From: a virus
Taxonomy: Duplodnaviria; Caudoviricetes
IMG/VR virus record: IMGVR_UViG_3300005567_000154
Coordinates: 1-36,757 of that record
DNA: 36,757 nucleotides
Direction: 5' to 3' (one strand)
Shown here piece after piece: positions 7,624 through 25,994 of this stretch (position 1 is its first letter; each line of letters starts with the position of its first letter). Position numbers and translations under genes: made by a program. A model generated the notes under the pieces. The model searched no databases, was not told the origin of the DNA, and was given only the letters and a program-made list of their open reading frames with translations.

Positions 7624-7905
7624 ATGGAAGAAATAAAAGAAATAATTATGAGTCACTGCAAAGGGATAGCTTACCCAGAATTTGAACTTGAAGATTTGAA
7701 CGTGATGGTAAAAGAAATCAATGACCATTATACTAATGTAAAGAGCCAAGAGCTAACCAAAGCAAAGGAAGAGATCGAGAGGTTGAAACAGTACACCACT
7801 CACGATGAGCTAACTTGCCAATTAATCACAGCTGGGTTTTTAAAGCATGTAGATAATAGAGTGTGCACCTGTGGCCTTGACGAACTACTCAAAGAGGTGA
7901 AGTGA
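7624..7905 (+). CDS. Hypothetical protein with H..C...CTCGL motif
   Basis: ORF track; SD AAGGA. Confidence 0.6.
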   Translation: MEEIKEIIMSHCKGIAYPEFELEDLNVMVKEINDHYTNVKSQELTKAKEEIERLKQYTTHDELTCQLITAGFLKHVDNRVCTCGLDELLKEVK

Positions 7906-8543
7906 TGGAATATAGAGGTATGAAGAGAATGAAAACTATATTGCATTTATGCGCTAATCTTGGAAGTGATAGCAGGTTCTACCAATTAGATAATGATTAC
8001 GATGTTATAATGATTGGGAAACATATAGGGGTTGAGAATTACGAGCCGCCAGAAAATGTACATGGAATAATTGCGAATCCAGTATGTACAGAGTTTAGTA
8101 ATGCTAAAAACTCAGGTATCCCGCGTGATTTTGAAAAAGGAATGTTTTTAGTACACCACTGTAAAAGAATAATTAAAAAAGCAAAACCTAAATGGTGGGT
8201 AATAGAAAACCCGAGCACGGGAGCCTTGAGGAAATTTATAGGTAAACCGAATCACACGTACCAACCTTGGCAATACGGTAGCCCTTGGACGAAAGGCACG
8301 GGGCTATGGGGCGAATTTATAATGCCCGAAAGAACTGTTAAAAATAGGTATGACGTAATTAAAAACCCAAACCTATATATTAAGCCTAGAGGAACGCTGC
8401 CAGAGTTTACGGCCTTACATAAAAGTTCGATAGAATTTATAAAAGAGTTTGAATTCGCAAAAGACTTTGTGAATGTAGATGCTGATTTTAGAAGCTTGTG
8501 TAGTCAAGGATTTGCAAAAGAGTTTTACAAGGCTAATAAATAA
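7902..8543 (+). CDS. Compact C5-cytosine methyltransferase-like protein (start may be 7920 or 7929)
   Basis: ILHLCANLGSDS (degenerate motif I), ANPVCTEFS (PC-type motif IV), VIENP (motif VI), YG.PWTK.T.LWG. Confidence 0.7.
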   Translation: MMEYRGMKRMKTILHLCANLGSDSRFYQLDNDYDVIMIGKHIGVENYEPPENVHGIIANPVCTEFSNAKNSGIPRDFEKGMFLVHHCKRIIKKAKPKWWVIENPSTGALRKFIGKPNHTYQPWQYGSPWTKGTGLWGEFIMPERTVKNRYDVIKNPNLYIKPRGTLPEFTALHKSSIEFIKEFEFAKDFVNVDADFRSLCSQGFAKEFYKANK

Positions 8544-10843: not shown

Positions 10844-11275
10844 ATGCCAGAAATAGAAAACACTGATCCAGAATTTTGGAAAGTATTAAATGCCCATTTC
10901 GGGTTTAAGTATGATTTAGCCTGCAGCGCTTCAAACTGTCTTTGCCCTAATGGGATAACTAAAGTTGAAAACTCATTACACCAACCCTGGAATGAGCTAC
11001 CAAATTGGAAATTCCTAAACCCACCACCAGAAAACATGGGTTTATGGGTAGATAAGTGTTATGAAGAATCAAAACTAGGGGCTAAAATCGTAATGCTAAC
11101 ACAAGCGGAGACCGGTTCTACTTGGTTTAAGAATTTTATCTGGGGAAAGGCTAGGATTAGGTTTTTATCCGGCAATATGGAAAACCAACCCTCAAATAAT
11201 TTGATGATTTCAATGTTTGAGCCTAGAATCTTTATGAACCCTGATGTTTGGGAATGGAGAAAAGGATGGGAGTAA
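10844..11275 (+). CDS. Phage Dam-type N6-adenine methyltransferase, degenerate
   Basis: F.YDLACS..N, FLNPPP (for NPPY), WVDKCYEE..G.KIVML..A.T...WF, IRFL.G. Confidence 0.7.
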   Translation: MPEIENTDPEFWKVLNAHFGFKYDLACSASNCLCPNGITKVENSLHQPWNELPNWKFLNPPPENMGLWVDKCYEESKLGAKIVMLTQAETGSTWFKNFIWGKARIRFLSGNMENQPSNNLMISMFEPRIFMNPDVWEWRKGWE

Positions 11276-11667: not shown

Positions 11668-11724
11668 ATCTTTTTTTATTATTATGTGGTAATTAAATAT
11701 AACTATATGTATAATATGAATATG
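11667..11724 (+). promoter_or_regulatory. Repeated promoter, copy 3
   Basis: Same 27-bp block; GTGGTA 11686-11691, N18, TATAAT 11710-11715, N6, ATG 11722. Confidence 0.8.
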
Positions 11725-12783
11725 AATTATAATTGGAAATTATCAGACGGATACCCAGAAAAGAATGGGTATAGAGTATTCAGCTGCTTTTCTTGTGGTG
11801 GTGGTTCTACAATGGGCTACAAATTAGCCGGGTTTGAGGTAATCGGGAATAATGAGATTGATCCAAAAATGAACGAGTGCTATGTGAAAAACCATAACCC
11901 CAAATATTCATTCTTAGAGCCTATACAGGACTTTAAGAACAGGGGTGACTTACCAAAAGAATTGTTTGAACTTGATATTTTGGATGGTTCTCCGCCTTGT
12001 AGTAGCTTCTCAATGGCAGGGAATAGAGAAAAGGATTGGGGAAAAGAAAAGAAGTTTAGAGAAGGGCAATCTGAGCAGATTTTAGACACTCTATTTTTTG
12101 ACTTTATTGATTTAGCTAAGAAATTACAACCAAAAGTGGTTATTGCTGAAAACGTAAAAGGGCTGCTCATGGGGGATGCTGTAAACTATGTGAGAAAAAT
12201 TAACGAAGAATTTGAAAAAGCAGGGTATTATATACAACACCATTTGCTTGATGCTTCTAAAATGGGCGTTCCACAGAAAAGAGAAAGAGTGTTTTTTATA
12301 GCACTTAGAAAGGATTTAGCAGAACCTTTCTTATACCAGAAAACAATGTTTGATATGGAACCAGAGCTAAAATTAGAATTTAATGAACCCAAAATCCTAT
12401 TTGGTGAGTTTAAAGATGAGAATGGGCGTATTATGTCTAAGTTCCAAACTGAAATTTGGGAAAACAGAGAAGAAGGTGATCCAGATTTTTCTTGCACTAA
12501 TACTCGATTTAGAAATAAGCCAAATACTGGTTTTGGGCAAAATTATCTTTATACAAATAAGGTTTGCGGAACTATTACGTCGCATGAAGATTGTTATGTT
12601 CTTTTTGATTCTCCTAGATATACAAGCAAAAACGAGGTTTGTAAAATTGGGAGCTACCCTTTAGACTATGATTTTAGAGACAAAAAACCTCATTATATGA
12701 TAGGGATGAGTGTACCCCCACTAATGACAGCAAAGATAGCAGAACAAATCAAAACCCAATGGTTAGATAAACTTGTACTATAA
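11722..12783 (+). CDS. DNA (cytosine-5)-methyltransferase
   Basis: FSCGGG, GSPPCSSFS, ENVKG, PQKRERVF, IGMSVPP; probable leaderless start at 11722. Confidence 0.9.
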   Translation: MNYNWKLSDGYPEKNGYRVFSCFSCGGGSTMGYKLAGFEVIGNNEIDPKMNECYVKNHNPKYSFLEPIQDFKNRGDLPKELFELDILDGSPPCSSFSMAGNREKDWGKEKKFREGQSEQILDTLFFDFIDLAKKLQPKVVIAENVKGLLMGDAVNYVRKINEEFEKAGYYIQHHLLDASKMGVPQKRERVFFIALRKDLAEPFLYQKTMFDMEPELKLEFNEPKILFGEFKDENGRIMSKFQTEIWENREEGDPDFSCTNTRFRNKPNTGFGQNYLYTNKVCGTITSHEDCYVLFDSPRYTSKNEVCKIGSYPLDYDFRDKKPHYMIGMSVPPLMTAKIAEQIKTQWLDKLVL

Positions 12784-13866: not shown

Positions 13867-14190
13867 ATGGAAGAAAATGATGATTTAAACCGTAACCATT
13901 CACCACTGGCGAGAATAGAAAAAACACAAGGAACCCTTAACAAAGAAATTACAACCTTAGTTGCTTGGAGAATAGAGCATGAAACAAATGCTAAACGAGA
14001 TAGAGAAGATTTAGAAGGGGTCAAAGTTCACCTGTACGGTAAAGATGGCAATGGTGGTATCTTTGGCAATGGCGGCTTAGATGATAAAGTCAAAGCTATG
14101 GAAACCACGAGTAAAAATTTATGGAAATATATACTAGGAACAGGGGTTTTGGTCGGAATACTATCAAATTTGGACAAAATAATAAGATGA
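13867..14190 (+). CDS. Coiled-coil protein with C-terminal membrane anchor (holin/XhlA-like architecture)
   Basis: Coiled coil, GxxGNGG, hydrophobic WKYILGTGVLVGIL. Confidence 0.5.
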   Translation: MEENDDLNRNHSPLARIEKTQGTLNKEITTLVAWRIEHETNAKRDREDLEGVKVHLYGKDGNGGIFGNGGLDDKVKAMETTSKNLWKYILGTGVLVGILSNLDKIIR

Positions 14191-14564
14191 AAATAGCTGT
14201 AATTGATGATGAAAAAGATGATAGGTTTTTTCTTAGTCGAATATTGCTAAAATATAATGTTGAAGTACAGACTTACACCTCGAGCATTGATTTTGGGGCC
14301 CATGCCAATGCAGATGACTTTGATTTTGTTTGGATAGACTTTACTATAAATCACGGGGCAGGGGCTAAAAACATCCTTAGAGCCCTAACAGTTAAATCAA
14401 AAACAAGAGTTGTATTTATATCGCATGGCGACAAACACTTCACGAAAGAATTCAGAGAAAACCCTATTGTATGGGGTCTACTCCTAAAAGGGGATACTGA
14501 TTCGATTCATGAACACATAAAAAATAGGCTATACGAAAGGGCACACCCTGAAATTTATCAATAA
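14187..14564 (+). CDS. Single-domain response regulator (CheY-like receiver)
   Basis: MKIAVIDDEKDD, DFVWID (phospho-Asp), VVFIS, LLKG; start reassigned to the ATGA overlap. Confidence 0.8.
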   Translation: MKIAVIDDEKDDRFFLSRILLKYNVEVQTYTSSIDFGAHANADDFDFVWIDFTINHGAGAKNILRALTVKSKTRVVFISHGDKHFTKEFRENPIVWGLLLKGDTDSIHEHIKNRLYERAHPEIYQ

Positions 14565-14620: not shown

Positions 14621-15928
14621 ATGTTAAAATGGTCAAATGAAGACCGACTCATTTCTGAAATAAGGGAATGGTCGAAAAACCCTAGAATCATTGGGGGCAA
14701 GAAATTTGAGGATCTAATAACCTCAATGGATCGCTTCGGGTACGTTGACCAAATTGTTATAAATACTGACGGTGAGTTAATCGGTGGCCACGCTAGGTTA
14801 CAGAAACTAAAACAAGATGGTGAAACATCCGTTTCTGTAAGAACCCCAGATAGAAAACTAAATGAAGCCGAATTCAATGAACTTGCAATTAGACTGAATA
14901 AGAATATTGCAGGGGAATGGGATTTTGATGCCTTATTGAAGGATTTCGATTCTGGGGATCTAACCGATTGGGGGTTTGATGAATTAGATTTTTCTGATAT
15001 TTCCACAGATATTTCGCCAACCATCAATGAAGAAGAAATAAATGAAAAACTGACAGAAGTGTTTATAATACCTCCCTTTTCAATATTAGATACTAGGCAA
15101 GGTTACTGGTTAGAAAGAAAACAGATGTGGAAAAGTTTAATAAATGATAATGGAGAAAGCAGAGAATCAACATTGTATAAATCAAAAGGAGATCCGGTAA
15201 GCGAAAAAATAAGAAATACAGGTACAGTTTCTATTTTAGATCCTGTATTGGCTGAAATATCATTAAAATGGTTCAATATTAATGGTGGAAAAGCATTTGA
15301 TTGTTTTGCCGGTGATTCTGTCTTTGGTTTCGTTTCTTCTTATTTGGGCCACAATTTTACAGGAATCGAGCTAAGAAAAGAACAGGTCGATTTGAATCAA
15401 AAAAGGATTGATCAAACAAAGACAAAAAGCCGGTATATTTGTGATGATGGCCAAAATGTAGGCAAACACATAAAACCCGAAACCCAAGATTTACTGTTTT
15501 CATGCCCCCCTTATTTTAATCTTGAGGTTTATTCTGATTTACCTGATGATGCAAGCAACCAGGGTAGTTATGGAGATTTTATGTTAATAATTGAAAACGC
15601 CTTCTCTGATGCTATTAAATGCTTAAAAAACGATAGATTTGCCATTATTGTGTGTGGTGATATTAGAACGAAAAAGGGTGATTATCATAGGTTTCCAGAT
15701 CACCTAAAGGATTTGTTCATAAAAAATGGTATGGTTTTGTATAATGAATTGATATTAGTTGAACCGATAAGCACTAGTAGGCTAAGAGCAAGGCCTAATA
15801 TGAGAACCAGAAAAGTGGTGAAAACCCACCAAAATGTATTAGTGTTTTATAAGGGCGATATGAAGAAAATAAAAGAAAATTTTCCTGAAATAGAGGTTGT
15901 AATTGAAAGCGAAAATATGGAACCATAG
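14621..15928 (+). CDS. ParB-N domain fused to an amino-(N6A/N4C)-methyltransferase-fold domain
   Basis: NPR..FGYVDQIVIN..LIGGHARL..LN(K)..GEWD (ParB/Srx); DCFAGDS, GIELR, FSCPPY. Confidence 0.85.
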   Translation: MLKWSNEDRLISEIREWSKNPRIIGGKKFEDLITSMDRFGYVDQIVINTDGELIGGHARLQKLKQDGETSVSVRTPDRKLNEAEFNELAIRLNKNIAGEWDFDALLKDFDSGDLTDWGFDELDFSDISTDISPTINEEEINEKLTEVFIIPPFSILDTRQGYWLERKQMWKSLINDNGESRESTLYKSKGDPVSEKIRNTGTVSILDPVLAEISLKWFNINGGKAFDCFAGDSVFGFVSSYLGHNFTGIELRKEQVDLNQKRIDQTKTKSRYICDDGQNVGKHIKPETQDLLFSCPPYFNLEVYSDLPDDASNQGSYGDFMLIIENAFSDAIKCLKNDRFAIIVCGDIRTKKGDYHRFPDHLKDLFIKNGMVLYNELILVEPISTSRLRARPNMRTRKVVKTHQNVLVFYKGDMKKIKENFPEIEVVIESENMEP

Positions 15929-16166
15929 TGAGTGGGCAGTAATAAACCCAGATAGCAACCTAAAAGAAACATACACCGGGCTATTAAAGGCCAGTGGATT
16001 TAAAATATTAGGCTTTATTGAACACCATTTTGACCCACAGGGGTACACAGCACTTTGGCTATTAGGTGAAAGCCACTTTGCGATCCACACCTTTCCAGAG
16101 GAAAACAAATATTATATAGAGCTTACAAGCTGTAATGAGGATTATCTAAACAATTTCAAAAAATAA
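15903..16166 (+). CDS. speD: S-adenosylmethionine decarboxylase proenzyme (short class 1)
   Basis: HHFDPQGYTALWLLGE-SHFAIHTFPE...ELTSC; SD GAGGT with TTG start overlapping the upstream gene. Confidence 0.9.
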   Translation: MKAKIWNHSEWAVINPDSNLKETYTGLLKASGFKILGFIEHHFDPQGYTALWLLGESHFAIHTFPEENKYYIELTSCNEDYLNNFKK

Positions 16167-16377
16167 GCAATTCAAGGGATTTATAACATTTTGCAACACA
16201 ATCATCAATATTATATCCTAACTGCTCATAAAAACGAGGGTTATTAATGCAATCAGAACCCCTTAATATATCATCACGGTATAAACCCAGGTTAGGCCAT
16301 TTTTTAACAATTGCAAGAGCTTTGGTTTTTTGCCCACTTTCATACAATTCTTTAGCTTGTTGTTTTTTTGATACCAT
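16156..16377 (-). CDS. Lone minus-strand small protein (73 aa), moron-like
   Basis: ATG 16377 lies 6 nt after a TATAAT of the repeated promoter; NPRFYEQLGY motif. Confidence 0.7.
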   Translation of the reverse strand: MVSKKQQAKELYESGQKTKALAIVKKWPNLGLYRDDILRGSDCINNPRFYEQLGYNIDDCVAKCYKSLELLIF

Positions 16378-16413
16378 ACCCTTATTATACCATAAATTTA
16401 ATTTAACTACCAC
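16375..16413 (-). promoter_or_regulatory. Repeated promoter, minus-strand copy
   Basis: Reverse complement reads GTGGTA-N18-TATAAT-AAGGGT-ATG. Confidence 0.75.
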
Positions 16414-16429
16414 TGATTCATTAAAATAA

Positions 16430-16954
16430 ATGGCTGTTAAAAAGAAAAAAGCAAAGAAAAAACCAGTGGGCCGTCCACCTTTCGAGGCTACTGAAAAACA
16501 CCACGAATCAGCTTACAAAGGAGCTAAAAAAGGACTTAACGAACAAGAGATTTCCAAGGTAATGGGGATCGGATATTCCACTTTTAAGGAAAATAAGCAA
16601 CTATTTCTGGCCGATATTAAAAAAGGACGTGAAGCTTCACAAGATGAAAGATTAAAAACAGTCGAAAACTCATTACTAAAGAATTGCGAAGGATACTTTG
16701 TTGAAGAAACAGTAATGGAGCGTAGAGGCACTTTAGACCGAAACAACCAATTTACAGGTGATACCAATGCAGTACAAAGGAAAACTAAGAAATATATCAA
16801 ACCATCTGATATGGCCATATTCTTCTTTCTCGTTAATCGATCTAATGGTAAATGGGAGTCTATCAATAGAAGGGATTGGTCAACCGAAAACGATTCTGGA
16901 GAAATATTAAATGCTATAAGGAAAATGAAACAAGATGCTCAAAGTAGAAAGTGA
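16430..16954 (+). CDS. terS: Terminase small subunit (HTH type)
   Basis: GRPP, GLNEQEISKVMGIGYSTF HTH, VENSLLK...GY, PSDMAIFFFLVNR; upstream of TerL. Confidence 0.75.
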   Translation: MAVKKKKAKKKPVGRPPFEATEKHHESAYKGAKKGLNEQEISKVMGIGYSTFKENKQLFLADIKKGREASQDERLKTVENSLLKNCEGYFVEETVMERRGTLDRNNQFTGDTNAVQRKTKKYIKPSDMAIFFFLVNRSNGKWESINRRDWSTENDSGEILNAIRKMKQDAQSRK

Positions 16955-17626: not shown

Positions 17627-18856
17627 ATGGAACTATCCCAAAAACAAGCCTACTATATGGAGAACGCCAATGCCAGGTGCAATATTGCTCATGGTTCGGT
17701 TCGGTCTGGTAAGACTGTAGGGTTAAACCTCAAGTTTATTGAGGAAATCGGGGAAACAGGAAAGGTCAAAGGCGCTCATCATATCATGATAGGGAGAACA
17801 GAAAGAACTTTGGCCGGTAATGTTCTGGACCCTATTCAAGATTATCTAGGTAAAAGAAACTTCAATTACTCAACTGGCACCCACATGGCTTATATGTTCG
17901 GGGTGCCTATACAACTTTATGGTGCTTCAGATATAAGGGCTGAAGGTAAAATTCGTGGCTTAACCGGCTGCAAGGCTTTAGGCGATGAAATGACCATATG
18001 GCCGAAAGGCTTCATGAATATGCTTATGACCAGGCTGTCAGTTGAGGACTCTAGGTTTCACGGAAGCACTAACCCAGATTCACCTTATCACGAAATTAAG
18101 ACTAATTATATCGATAAAGCAGGGGTTAATGATTTAAAAGAATTTCATTTCGCTTTAGAGGATAATCCATTCCTACCTAAAAAATATGTACAAAACCTAA
18201 AGAAAGAGTTCTCAGGGCTGTTTTATAAGCGGTTTATTATGGGTGAATGGGTGCTTGCTGAAGGGTCTATATTCGATTTCTTTGAAGAAAAAGAGCCATA
18301 CGTATTTAAAAAAGGGAAGTTACCAAAAGCCAAATGGTATACTGCCGGTATTGATTATGGTACTAGCAATGCCTTCGTTTGTGTTTTGGTGGGACATAAT
18401 CCAGACGCAACCCCTAGTTGTTGGGCTGAAAAAGAATACTATTACAGCGGTAGGGACAGCAATAAGCAAAAGACAGATCTCGAGTACTGTGAAGATTTGA
18501 AGGAATTTTTTGGTGAAATAAGGCCCAGAAAGATAATTGTCGATCCATCTGCAACTAGTTTTAAAGTACAGGCATCAAGGTCTGGTTTAATGGGGATTAC
18601 TGATGCCGATAATGATGTTTTAAATGGAATAGCCACCCATTCTAGGATGTTAAAAAACGGTGATTTTTCTGTTTCAGATGAATGTGGGAATTCTATAAGG
18701 GAATATATGTCATACGTTTGGGATGAAAAAGCCCAGGATAAAGGCGAGGATAAACCCAAAAAACAAAATGATCATGCAATGGATGCGATCAGGTATGCTT
18801 TACACACCCAATTTGGACAAGATTACCTAGATTATAGTAAACTGGTTACTTGGTAA
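17627..18856 (+). CDS. terL: Terminase large subunit (PBSX-like)
   Basis: HGSVRSGKT Walker A, ALGDE Walker B, STNPD, IDYG, VDPSA, DHAMDAIRY. Confidence 0.95.
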   Translation: MELSQKQAYYMENANARCNIAHGSVRSGKTVGLNLKFIEEIGETGKVKGAHHIMIGRTERTLAGNVLDPIQDYLGKRNFNYSTGTHMAYMFGVPIQLYGASDIRAEGKIRGLTGCKALGDEMTIWPKGFMNMLMTRLSVEDSRFHGSTNPDSPYHEIKTNYIDKAGVNDLKEFHFALEDNPFLPKKYVQNLKKEFSGLFYKRFIMGEWVLAEGSIFDFFEEKEPYVFKKGKLPKAKWYTAGIDYGTSNAFVCVLVGHNPDATPSCWAEKEYYYSGRDSNKQKTDLEYCEDLKEFFGEIRPRKIIVDPSATSFKVQASRSGLMGITDADNDVLNGIATHSRMLKNGDFSVSDECGNSIREYMSYVWDEKAQDKGEDKPKKQNDHAMDAIRYALHTQFGQDYLDYSKLVTW

Positions 18857-23197: not shown

Positions 23198-23350
23198 ATG
23201 ATTAAGCAAGCAAAAGTAATCCTCTACCCTATTTTTGTAGGGTTTGGAAAAAAAGTCATATCTGCACTATTTTTGACAGATACAGAGGCACCTGCTAATT
23301 TTCTAGTAGACACAGAATTACCTCCAAATAGGCTCGTTTGTAAATTCTAA
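23198..23350 (+). CDS. Small hypothetical protein (50 aa)
   Basis: Translated by hand; TAATG overlap with 23350; weak SD. Confidence 0.4.
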   Translation: MIKQAKVILYPIFVGFGKKVISALFLTDTEAPANFLVDTELPPNRLVCKF

Positions 23351-24849
23351 TGGCAGTACACGGACCAAGCATAAATGTAGATCCAGATGCGATCCATGAT
23401 AATGTCGCTGATGAAATAGGTGTCATTGCTGAGAAAGTAACGCCAATTGCTGCTGATGAAATCATCATAGAAGATAGTGCGGATTCAAACAATAAGAAGA
23501 AAGTACAAGCAGGGAATTTACCAGTTGCTTCTCATACTCACACAGAAAGTGAAATATCTGATTTAGACCACACTGATGCCGATGCAATCCATGATAATGT
23601 TTCGGGTGAGATAAATGCAGTAAGTGAAAAAACAACCCCTATTGGCGCTGATTTAATATTGATTGAAGATTCAGCCGATAGTAATAGTAAGAAGAGAATA
23701 CAGATTTCTAACCTTCCAGGTGGTGGTGATGCAGATGCAATCCACGACAATGTTGCAGGTGAAATCACAGCCATTACAAGCAAGGGTACACCAGTAAATG
23801 CTGATACAATTGTTATCGAAGATTCTACTGCTGCTGATGCCAAAAAAAGTGTAACAATCGGAAATTTACCTTTTGCTGCTCCAAGCCATACTCACACCGA
23901 ATCAGAAATTAGTGATTTAGATCATACTGATGCTGATGCCTTACATGATAATGTGGCAGGTGAGATCTCATTAATAACTAATAAAACCACACCCATTGGT
24001 GCTGATTTACTGGTTATCGAAGATTCAGCAGCCACTAATGCGAAAAAGAATGTTTTAATTGGTTCTTTACCTTTTACAGCCCCAGGCCATACACATACTG
24101 AATCTGATATAACAGATCTAGTACATCCTTTTATGGAAGGATGGGTCAAAGGTTTAGAGATGACTTTTGCAAGTGTATCTACGGTATCAATTGAAGCGGG
24201 TAAATGTAGAGATAGCGCGAATGGGTTTAATATTATTAATACAGCCACGAGAACAGCCGATATTACTACTTCTGGCCTAAATGGGTTAGACACTGGGACA
24301 GAAGCGGTCAGCACTTGGTACGCATTATTTATAATTGATGATTCTACAGGTTCCAATACAGAAGGGGCTTTATTGTCTCTTTCTAGTACCGCGCCCACGC
24401 TTCCAGGTGGATACGATGTATTTAAAAGGGTTGGATGGGTTCGGAACAATGCTTCTGGTGATTTTATAAAATTCATCCAAACAAGAACGAATGATTTTAG
24501 AAAAGTTTTCTATGATGAGGAAATTACTAATTTAACAGTTTTATCACTTGGTTCAGCTACCATTTACACGGGGGTAAGTTTAGCTGCATTCGTTCCACCT
24601 ACATCATTGGAACCTATTTTGGCCCTTGTTATAGCCCCAGATGATAGGGGTGATTTCCTAGAAATTAGGCCGACAGGCTCCACAATGGACAATGCCACTT
24701 ATAAATTCAATGGTATTGATGACAAGAATAAATCTGGGTACGGTATTCAGGAAACTATTTGTAGTAATCTTCAAAACATTGAATATAGAGTAACACAAGC
24801 ATCTGATGATGCTAGTATCGGAGTAGTGGGTTATTATGACCAACTTTGA
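23350..24849 (+). CDS. Repeat-containing fibre protein located in the head module
   Basis: Four DAIHDNVxGEI..KxTP..AD..IEDS..KK repeats, three HTHTES(E/D)I(S/T)DL motifs, fibre-like C-terminal domain (WYALF..LS.S.TAPTLPGGY..KRVGW). Confidence 0.7.
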   Translation: MAVHGPSINVDPDAIHDNVADEIGVIAEKVTPIAADEIIIEDSADSNNKKKVQAGNLPVASHTHTESEISDLDHTDADAIHDNVSGEINAVSEKTTPIGADLILIEDSADSNSKKRIQISNLPGGGDADAIHDNVAGEITAITSKGTPVNADTIVIEDSTAADAKKSVTIGNLPFAAPSHTHTESEISDLDHTDADALHDNVAGEISLITNKTTPIGADLLVIEDSAATNAKKNVLIGSLPFTAPGHTHTESDITDLVHPFMEGWVKGLEMTFASVSTVSIEAGKCRDSANGFNIINTATRTADITTSGLNGLDTGTEAVSTWYALFIIDDSTGSNTEGALLSLSSTAPTLPGGYDVFKRVGWVRNNASGDFIKFIQTRTNDFRKVFYDEEITNLTVLSLGSATIYTGVSLAAFVPPTSLEPILALVIAPDDRGDFLEIRPTGSTMDNATYKFNGIDDKNKSGYGIQETICSNLQNIEYRVTQASDDASIGVVGYYDQL

Positions 24850-25162
24850 GATTGTAGACTGCTTGGATTGCGGGAAATGTTGTACCTCTAAAAGTTTGGA
24901 GAATATTTCTGTATATGCCACTGATGAAGAATGGGAAGCTATTCCGAATCGATATAAGCCAATATTGAAATGGCAAAAAAACCACATGGGGTTCAAGCCA
25001 CATGATGATGGTTTTTGTTGCAGCGCTTTGTCTGGTGAAGTCGGAAAGAAAATCAGTTGTGATATATATGAAATACGCCCGGACTCTTGCAGAAAGTTTG
25101 AAGTGGGTAGTGAAAGATGCTTGGAAGCTAGAAAGCTTGAAACTACGGGGTTCTTACAATGA
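24836..25162 (+). CDS. YkgJ-family CxxCxxCC (Zn/Fe-S) protein
   Basis: CLDCGKCC...CSAL...CDIYEIRPDSCRKF. Confidence 0.85.
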   Translation: MTNFEIVDCLDCGKCCTSKSLENISVYATDEEWEAIPNRYKPILKWQKNHMGFKPHDDGFCCSALSGEVGKKISCDIYEIRPDSCRKFEVGSERCLEARKLETTGFLQ

Positions 25163-25728
25163 CAATGCACATAGTTACAGACACAGCTACCGGAAGGATT
25201 TTAAGAAGCGGTCACGATGTTGATTTTGAGAATGATGGTTCCTTTGATTCATCTACTGAATCTTATAGAACAGATGCCCCTGATAACGTAAAGGCTTCCA
25301 AATTAGATGATACATCAGACCATGATATATACAATGGGTTCGCTTATGAGACTGTTTCGGAAACAACCCCTGAAAAACTTATTAAATACAAGAAAAAGAA
25401 AAGAAAAAAGATTACTAATAAAACATATAAAAAGCTGAGCGAAGGATTTTCGCATAACGGAAAACATTTCTCTTGTATAAAAAAAGCACAAGATTTTATT
25501 GCTCACATGAAACAATTTATCGATAAAAGTAAACTTTTCATCCCATTACAAATAACCACTATTGAAGATGAGACTTATGTTTTTAACACTATTGAGGATT
25601 TTAATTTATTTGTGGACACCGTTTTGGGTACAGTAAAAAATCATAAGGATGAGGAACGTCCCATTAAACAACAACTTTTTGCGGCTACCGATATTGCTGC
25701 AGTTGACGCGATACTAGATGAGAGGTAA
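25159..25728 (+). CDS. DUF4376-like / fibre-assembly-type protein
   Basis: K..KI......GF..NG..F, helical C-terminus ending A.DIAAVDAI. Confidence 0.55.
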   Translation: MTMHIVTDTATGRILRSGHDVDFENDGSFDSSTESYRTDAPDNVKASKLDDTSDHDIYNGFAYETVSETTPEKLIKYKKKKRKKITNKTYKKLSEGFSHNGKHFSCIKKAQDFIAHMKQFIDKSKLFIPLQITTIEDETYVFNTIEDFNLFVDTVLGTVKNHKDEERPIKQQLFAATDIAAVDAILDER

Positions 25729-25730
25729 TT

Positions 25731-25994
25731 ATGCAAAATAACGGATTTACAGCACCAAATGGTTCAACTCTTGAAGTGGCCACAGTATCCTCGGATACCA
25801 AATTAATTCTAATTCAGAATAACGACGCCTCAAGTGATTTGAGATTTGGGTTTACGGATGCTAAAACAAACGCTACCGATGGGTTTTTGGTTGAAGCAAA
25901 ACAAACATTTCCTTTGCCAGTAGATGGTAATGGTGGAAAAATATTTGTTTTTGGTGTCGGCGCAATTGTTGCCGGGGTAATAGGTCAACTATGA
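25731..25994 (+). CDS. Small beta-rich virion protein
   Basis: SD GAGG; LILIQNN...LRFGF...GF.V pattern. Confidence 0.5.
   Translation: MQNNGFTAPNGSTLEVATVSSDTKLILIQNNDASSDLRFGFTDAKTNATDGFLVEAKQTFPLPVDGNGGKIFVFGVGAIVAGVIGQL

Follow-up and report, generated by a model that had tools for sequence, protein, structure and literature searches.

A two-gene module of a myovirus-like provirus very probably couples an enzyme of the DNA methyltransferase (MTase) type to decarboxylated S-adenosylmethionine (dcSAM). Across homologues, the presence of a neighbouring S-adenosylmethionine (SAM) decarboxylase gene, speD, tracks two positions in motif I of the transferase: an Asp after GxG and the loss of a basic residue three positions later. 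The first-pass annotation of this DNA had proposed that the enzyme places an aminopropyl group on a DNA base. The co-variation of loop and speD bears out the dcSAM half of that proposal; it shows dcSAM use but is silent on which arm of the cofactor is moved. On balance we favour the transfer of a 3-aminopropyl group from dcSAM to the exocyclic amine of a phage DNA base as the best reading, and the enzyme likely functions as aminopropyltransferases do, on the scaffold of an amino-MTase.

The window, by which we mean the whole stretch of DNA analysed, is a record of 36,757 bp estimated to be 81% complete, and the module lies at the border of the replication genes and the packaging module. The first gene (14621-15928, plus strand) encodes a 435-residue protein with a ParB-like N-terminus and an amino-MTase fold, the predicted dcSAM-dependent transferase. 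The second (15903-16166, plus strand) encodes an 87-residue minimal class 1b AdoMet decarboxylase (AdoMetDC) proenzyme, and it starts with TTG, with GAGG 7-10 nt before the start codon. The coordinates agree with the overlap of 26 nt initially noted between the two reading frames. The adjacency to the small terminase gene that had also been noted needs correcting, as 263 nt separate speD from terS (16430-16954, plus strand; phrog_309, E 1.4e-18), most of it taken up by a small antisense ORF (16156-16413, minus strand) which matches no Pfam family and is probably outside the module. The large terminase subunit follows at 17627-18856 on the plus strand (PF03237, phrog_2). Three further MTase-family genes are found in the window, at 7902, 10844 and 11686, and scans for promoters and terminators gave no signal above shuffled sequence. 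The window had been said to lack a spermidine synthase; this extends to the whole record at its 81% completeness, in which PF01564, the SpeE family, has no match.

The speD product matches PF02675 with 56 bits against a cut-off of 25, and falls below the cut-off of the curated equivalog TIGR03330 (45.3 vs 75.65 bits), the whole clade to which it belongs being short. It aligns without gaps to the Thermotoga maritima AdoMetDC (1tlu) at an offset of +6, and keeps E56-S57, H62 and C77, which we take to correspond to the Glu-Ser at that enzyme's cleavage site and to its His and Cys; the intact self-cleavage site, His and Cys reported at first sight are thus in register. Its C-terminal tail extends 31 residues past the Glu of the ESH motif, which is the minimum of the clade (mode 36); since short tails are normal in this clade, a truncated or dead enzyme is unlikely. 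The top match from an isolated phage is gp67 of Croceibacter phage P2559S (57.7% identity over 78 residues), which is reported to restore spermidine in Escherichia coli lacking speD (PMC9992855) and so is a true AdoMetDC. From these sequence comparisons the window's speD is likely to be a working SAM decarboxylase.

The transferase opens with a ParB-like domain and an acidic linker (14645-15073, plus strand; residues 9-151 with a GHAR stretch, phrog_620, E 1.9e-20); in some relatives the ParB domain is missing or split off. The MTase domain follows (phrog_498, E 3e-114; PF01555, E 1e-11) with motif I, DCFAGDSVFG, at 15299-15328, running from D227 to the Gly after F235, and motif IV, SCPPY from S294, at 15500-15514. 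The Cys-Pro-Pro-Tyr of motif IV is invariant across the alignment, a sample partly selected on that motif. The two positions that vary with speD are Asp232 (15314-15316) and Phe235 (15323-15325), held by Gly and Arg in relatives without speD, and the loop FAGGSVRG, initially given for related phage enzymes, is indeed present in them.

An AlphaFold2 model of residues 142-435, built from 114 sequences, is a Rossmann MTase with a mean pLDDT of 93.1. The closest solved folds are tRNA guanine-N2 methyltransferases, namely Trm11 (Z 18.8, rmsd 2.8, 184 residues aligned) and TrmN (Z 18.4), with about 175-185 residues aligned at 13-16% identity for such matches; the 50 entries that VIA-align listed include neither spermidine synthase nor 3-amino-3-carboxypropyl (acp) transferases. 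In Trm11, TrmN and Trm14 a THUMP RNA-binding domain is fused to the MTase domain. Our transferase has no Pfam match to THUMP and carries the ParB domain instead. The closest solved sequences are TTHA0409 and N4-cytosine DNA MTases. With the N6/N4 MTases of PF01555 the enzyme shares the Rossmann fold, but its motif IV has Cys at the usual D/N/S position, and in motif I it reads FAGDSVF where TTHA0409 reads FAGTGTT and an N4-cytosine MTase FAGSGTT, canonical amino-MTases having Ser/Thr and Thr at the two switch positions. It therefore lacks the PF01555-type motif I, an FxGxG whose first Gly is followed by a small residue, with Thr three positions beyond that. The beta-class order of motif IV before motif I is also absent: motif I comes first, and the profile aligns to beta-class enzymes as two segments in permuted order. 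Judged by its sequence, the transferase is outside the beta class of DNA MTases in both of that class's defining features, motif I and motif order.

The distribution of speD was followed in several samples of homologues. When IMG/VR loci were seeded with the transferase (the best 80 of 198, window copies and near-duplicates included), 71 Asp/Phe enzymes had an adjacent speD and three had none in the locus, one of these (L071) having it elsewhere in the record; five more loci combined a changed loop with no speD, and one was cut. Among genome contigs (the best 80 of 455) speD adjoined 48 of 52 Asp/Phe enzymes, the exceptions being two cut loci and two truly without it, and none of the 28 others (10 Asp/Lys, 2 Gly/Phe, 6 Gly/Lys and 10 Gly/Arg). 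Approached from the decarboxylase, 37 of 44 speD-seeded loci had a transferase upstream, and all 35 that could be read were Asp/Phe; in two of the seven transferase-free loci the mini-speD adjoins a second speD-like gene.

A further sample was selected on motif IV only and covered 3 of the 64 parts that make up the collection. It comprised 120 loci, five of which were dropped for having no or a low score, leaving 115 family members; 111 were searched as whole records, many of them fragments, and four were judged on their flanks only. Here speD accompanied 10/10 enzymes with the Asp/Phe loop (FAGDxxFG) and 0/105 others. Nothing but the motif could initially be seen for 38 short loci; the records that then turned out to contain speD were the three with Asp/Phe and no others. 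Among 14 named phage records speD was limited to the two with Asp/Phe. Neither residue suffices as a predictor: Asp alone is contradicted by 12 Asp/Lys loci without speD (four host assemblies of such loci have no speD anywhere), and Phe alone by seven Gly/Phe loci without it. The expected co-occurrence of the loop Asp with speD thus holds in homologues for the pair of positions, but not for the Asp by itself.

A tree of 151 representatives (FastTree, SH-like supports, loop columns masked; short or cut loci and near-duplicates excluded) places the Asp/Phe enzymes as one clade inside the Gly/Arg family (SH support 0.993), several other nodes being weakly supported. The tree implies nine changes of speD, which was gained once and lost eight times. 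Of the losses, five coincide with a changed loop (L014/L027, L080, L326, L327 and a Bacteroidales clade in which Lys was regained and Asp partly lost), and the remaining three, in L038/L042, L316 and L318, left Asp/Phe in place; the host of L316 carries its own speD and speE. Not one of the 92 tips without Asp/Phe keeps speD. These figures should be considered with caution, as the independent events are few because speD was gained only once. In several branches (L126, L076, L142 and the L283 and L324 groups) the partner speD, judged by eye, is of a different and more canonical lineage. It would follow that the function rather than the gene has been retained, which suggests selection for the supply of dcSAM.

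The obvious consumer of this dcSAM is the transferase. Searches of 50 phage records (48 with Asp/Phe, two with speD only; 23 at least 90% complete) and of five additional ones found no speE. Host assemblies carrying the pair (n = 30 of 40 searched), many of them incomplete or possibly mis-binned metagenome-assembled genomes, had a strong speE match in eight cases, only a weak one in eight and none in 14. As speE is absent from the phages and from most hosts, polyamine supply through a host speE is not a general explanation. Genes of DNA modification, Mom and TAGT, are among the neighbours. Downstream, at a distance of up to 3 kb, 98 of 114 Asp/Phe loci with speD (redundant loci included) have a large terminase gene. 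This late position, together with the three other MTase-family genes, would argue against SAM depletion at entry. The alternatives first listed for the pair, namely polyamine supply, SAM depletion and an arginine or ornithine decarboxylase, have all lost ground, given a close relative that is a true AdoMetDC and the absence of speE from the phages and most hosts.

Two lines of evidence bear on the arm that is transferred. In spermidine synthase (PMC3725402) the loop Asp binds the amine of dcSAM and is thought to repel the carboxylate of SAM; its replacement (D103I) abolishes synthase activity and confers weak methyltransferase activity, which V106T, at the third position after the Asp, strengthens. 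Asp232 and Phe235 have the spacing of D103 and V106, in a register set by anchoring on the motif (beta-1). Set against four SpeE sequences in a profile comparison (hhalign), the transferase gave no significant match (probability 1.4%) and its loop fell two residues off that register, so the equivalence of the Asp residues rests on motif anchoring.

The second line comes from the sister enzymes. A fold-II PLP enzyme adjoins the Gly/Arg transferase in Vincenzo and Mae-JY30 and is inserted within it in Pam4, ZS04 and R6L. The PLP protein of Vincenzo, gp2, matches gp226 of phage ViI (86.7 bits, E 1e-23), and its phage matches listed are mostly from phages of enterobacteria and Vibrio, about 150-165 kb in size, which we read as ViI-like; the PLP-partner profile also matches M6 gp52 (69.8 bits). 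Both gp226 and gp52 remove the carboxyl group from amino acids carried on thymines in DNA (PMC8989533). A methyl group gives a PLP decarboxylase no substrate and an aminocarboxypropyl group does, so these partners favour the amino-acid arm. The PLP gene occurs in 11 of 38 Gly/Arg records (five of the 11 were preselected) and 0 of 12 Asp/Phe records; it is never found together with speD, and no Asp/Phe locus has one nearby. Since 27 of the 38 Gly/Arg records are without it, the link covers a minority of the Gly/Arg enzymes. The case for aminopropyl over methyl is built on these PLP partners together with the analogy to spermidine synthase.

In the favoured mechanism, speD would cleave itself between Glu56 and Ser57 and make dcSAM, as its 58%-identical relative has been shown to do. 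Asp232 would bind the amine of dcSAM and disfavour a carboxylate, and Phe235 would replace the Arg that otherwise binds the carboxylate of SAM. With the flipped base held by the CPPY motif, the aminopropyl arm (+57.06 Da) would be moved to it and methylthioadenosine released. Cytosine N4 is a first guess at the target, from the SPPY-like motif; adenine N6 or guanine N2 may instead be the acceptor. The phage would likely modify its own DNA in this way late in infection, near packaging, and one might speculate that the cationic base keeps nucleases from acting or makes the DNA easier to condense. The ancestral Gly/Arg enzymes may transfer 3-amino-3-carboxypropyl from SAM itself (+101.05 Da), and where a gp226/gp52-like PLP enzyme is present it may decarboxylate the acp group on the DNA, a putative second route to the same base.

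It is tempting to extend this to the whole family, about 3000 IMG/VR stretches fitting one of its motif patterns. The family would then move the amino-acid arm of SAM, and not the methyl group, onto DNA, with the Asp/Phe clade decarboxylating the cofactor first. Gly/Arg members would make an aminocarboxypropyl base, which some would decarboxylate or tailor with PLP and 2-oxoglutarate enzymes. We offer this broader reading tentatively, as plausible and a little short of an even bet.

The most serious alternative, which we nevertheless consider unlikely, is that a DNA methyltransferase has been retuned to take its methyl group from dcSAM. Such a phage could methylate its own DNA while turning SAM into a form useless to host enzymes, a private methyl donor. 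All of the co-variation between motif and speD is accounted for equally well; the fold, motif IV and the closest solved sequences are all of methyltransferases, and the geometry of transfer would be unchanged. The PLP decarboxylases beside and inside the sister enzymes are left unexplained, and the three other MTase-family genes of the window presumably need SAM. The spermidine synthase work (PMC3725402) also points away from it, the loop Asp there fixing the aminopropyl arm and its removal yielding methyl transfer.

Less probable still, though worth stating, is that aminopropyl is moved from dcSAM to something other than DNA, such as tRNA or some other RNA, a protein of the virion or the terminase, or else a small amine, the last of which would make the enzyme a new kind of spermidine synthase providing polyamine for packaging. 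The top structural matches act on tRNA, no large domain for target recognition is evident in the family, and a private polyamine route would be useful given that most host assemblies lack speE. The pairing of a transferase with a decarboxylase is also the logic of carboxyspermidine synthesis. On the other hand, enzymes with a PPY-type motif IV act on the planar amines of bases and amides, not on aliphatic amines. The fusion to ParB, the position before the terminase and the Mom and TAGT neighbours indicate DNA, as do the closest characterised relatives of the PLP partners, which act on DNA (PMC8989533).

Fainter again is the prospect of an ordinary SAM-dependent DNA MTase beside an unrelated speD, which would drain SAM against restriction or BREX systems or feed the polyamine synthesis of the host; we judge it very improbable. 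The database labels do read methyltransferase, members of the mini-speD clade occur without a transferase (the seven of 44 loci above), three lineages keep Asp/Phe without speD, and 8 of 30 hosts have speE. However, changes in the loop follow the gain and loss of speD, and none of the 92 tips without Asp/Phe keeps it; speE is missing from all 50 phage records and from most hosts; and a late position before terS would poorly suit SAM depletion against restriction. Finally, a speD neofunctionalised to arginine or ornithine, whose neighbour would use agmatine, putrescine or nothing from it, is scarcely credible: such homologues exist and are common where speE is absent (PMC10407285), and this protein is very short and under the TIGR03330 cut-off, but E. 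coli without speD regains its spermidine when given the P2559S enzyme, which shares both clade and gene pair with this protein.

If the favoured reading is true, it provides a new DNA base and a new role for decarboxylated SAM, known as a polyamine precursor, and explains why small phages without speE carry speD. A large set of 'DNA methyltransferases' would need to be re-labelled, and the family would offer two things besides: a switch of two residues, found in nature, that sets the choice of cofactor, and an enzyme placing a primary-amine handle on DNA. Should the whole-family reading also be true, no earlier nucleic-acid enzyme would have depended on dcSAM, and two undescribed DNA bases would be added. 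Full-text searches, mainly of the main texts of non-subscription papers and judged from the papers listed, turned up no account of a DNA base derived from dcSAM or acp; the survey of Iyer et al. (2013) may list such neighbourhoods.

The gene pair itself is present in isolated phages, as gp66-gp67 of Croceibacter phage P2559S and WID42107-WID42108 of Stutzerimonas phage ZRG1, in which the same Asp/Phe enzyme (56.5% and 59% identity, respectively) stands beside speD. The reading is thus directly testable, one of the two partners already working in E. coli. In the main text of PMC9992855, P2559S gp67 is treated as part of polyamine metabolism, and the words 'methyltransferase' and 'methylase' are absent. 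The paper on phage R6L calls its PLP-inserted homologue a methylase, by prediction only.

The same architecture and position are seen in the ParB-fused N6/N4 MTases of ParB-terminase loci, which in PMC4738411 and PMC12704722 are predicted to modify DNA during packaging and are treated as methyltransferases; the word 'decarboxylase' is absent from both main texts. ParB domains accompany other phage DNA-modifying enzymes too, and can activate them (PMC13229309 and PMC12704722).

The closest logic is that of CmoA-CmoX in Synechococcus phage S-B43, where, as set out in PMC12783734, the phage remodels SAM and a DNA MTase homologue with an altered pocket uses the product; ParB genes are often found near that pair as well. 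CmoX is a homologue of C5-cytosine MTases and takes the (carboxy)methyl arm of carboxy-SAM, whereas here the enzyme is PF01555-like, its partner belongs to PF02675, the cofactor would be dcSAM and the predicted arm is aminopropyl. With SpeE and putrescine N-methyltransferase (PMC3725402) the transferase would share SpeD-supplied dcSAM and, in the motif-anchored register, the loop Asp and a hydrophobic residue three positions later, two of the positions at which that pair switches cofactor and transferred group, the aminopropyltransferase motif being hhhhGGG(D/E)G (PMC11107197). Genetic coupling to AdoMetDC is a further trait of the SpeE family that is found here. Unlike SpeE, the transferase has a CPPY motif and a ParB domain, and its predicted acceptor is a nucleobase.

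The ViI gp226 and M6 gp52 pathways are related through the PLP homologues that accompany the Gly/Arg sisters, and an aminoalkyl base is likewise the expected product; there free amino acids are placed on 5-hmdU by way of a kinase and AADT, with no MTase fold or SAM arm (PMC8989533), and in our window no PLP gene stands beside the pair. In its product, the proposed chemistry comes closest to the cationic, amine-bearing bases alpha-putrescinylthymine of phage phiW-14 and alpha-diaminopropanylthymine of SH-Ab 15599. In these, free diamines are added to 5-hmdU by AADT/DADT, and not from dcSAM, and DNA containing alpha-diaminopropanylthymine resists restriction enzymes (PMC13458397).

Among the relatives' loci in the comparison set (L-numbers), one clade, mostly from Bacteroidales, is nested within the Asp/Phe group of transferases, named after its residues at the two motif I switch positions (L149, L156, L298-L323 and L338-L347). 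In this clade the Lys at +3 has been regained, speD has been lost and the Asp has been lost in part, and the clade is a natural reversion series inside the Asp/Phe group.

In larger phages, members of the mini-speD clade also occur without the transferase (L084:1026-1672 and L098:4968-5646); in both loci the neighbour is another speD-like gene, which carries the site ETSNI, and the two are possibly a polyamine pair. Two loci, labelled by eye, hold decayed forms: in L122:27-386 speD lies in frame after an apparent ParB remnant, without the transferase, and in L124:91-2450 a speD fragment is flanked by preQ0-type genes and terS. In L074:5833-6090 the cleavage site of a P2559S-like speD is gone through an internal deletion that may be either genuine decay or an assembly error.

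In the window, the immediate upstream neighbour of the ParB-transferase gene encodes a stand-alone response-regulator receiver-like domain (14187-14564, + strand), whose PF00072 match (E 1e-6) falls slightly short of the cut-off. The gap between speD and terS holds a small antisense ORF (16156-16413, - strand) that also runs into the stop codon of speD; it has 85 aa if counted from a GTG start and roughly 73 if counted from the following ATG, and a Pfam search gave no match for it. The early region holds three additional DNA methyltransferase-family genes, phrog_757, Dam-like and Dcm-like (7902-8543, 10844-11275 and 11686-12783), and the head module carries an insert (23350-25994) comprising a CxxCxxCC protein, two small genes and a 499-aa acidic protein with approximately three 'DADAIHDNV' repeats.

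Elsewhere in the family, the Asp/Phe transferase and speD of L085 and of three loci related to it have a SAM synthetase (MetK) gene upstream (2490-3521 in L085), and Mom-family, TET-associated glycosyltransferase, GNAT and sulfotransferase genes adjoin other members (L100:3162-3827, L091:2055-2930, L211:2716-3111 and L217:2622-3461). In two loci a Gly/Arg transferase is adjoined by an Asp/Asn beta-hydroxylase-like 2-oxoglutarate enzyme (L187:3121-4272 and L178:2354-3535), which could tailor an amino-acid arm; in L187 its gene sits between those of the transferase and the pyridoxal-phosphate (PLP) enzyme. A short, degenerate PLP-enzyme-like gene behind a transferase with a GGEQTKG loop (L130:3848-4363) corresponds to gp52 of Clostridium phage phiCTP1.
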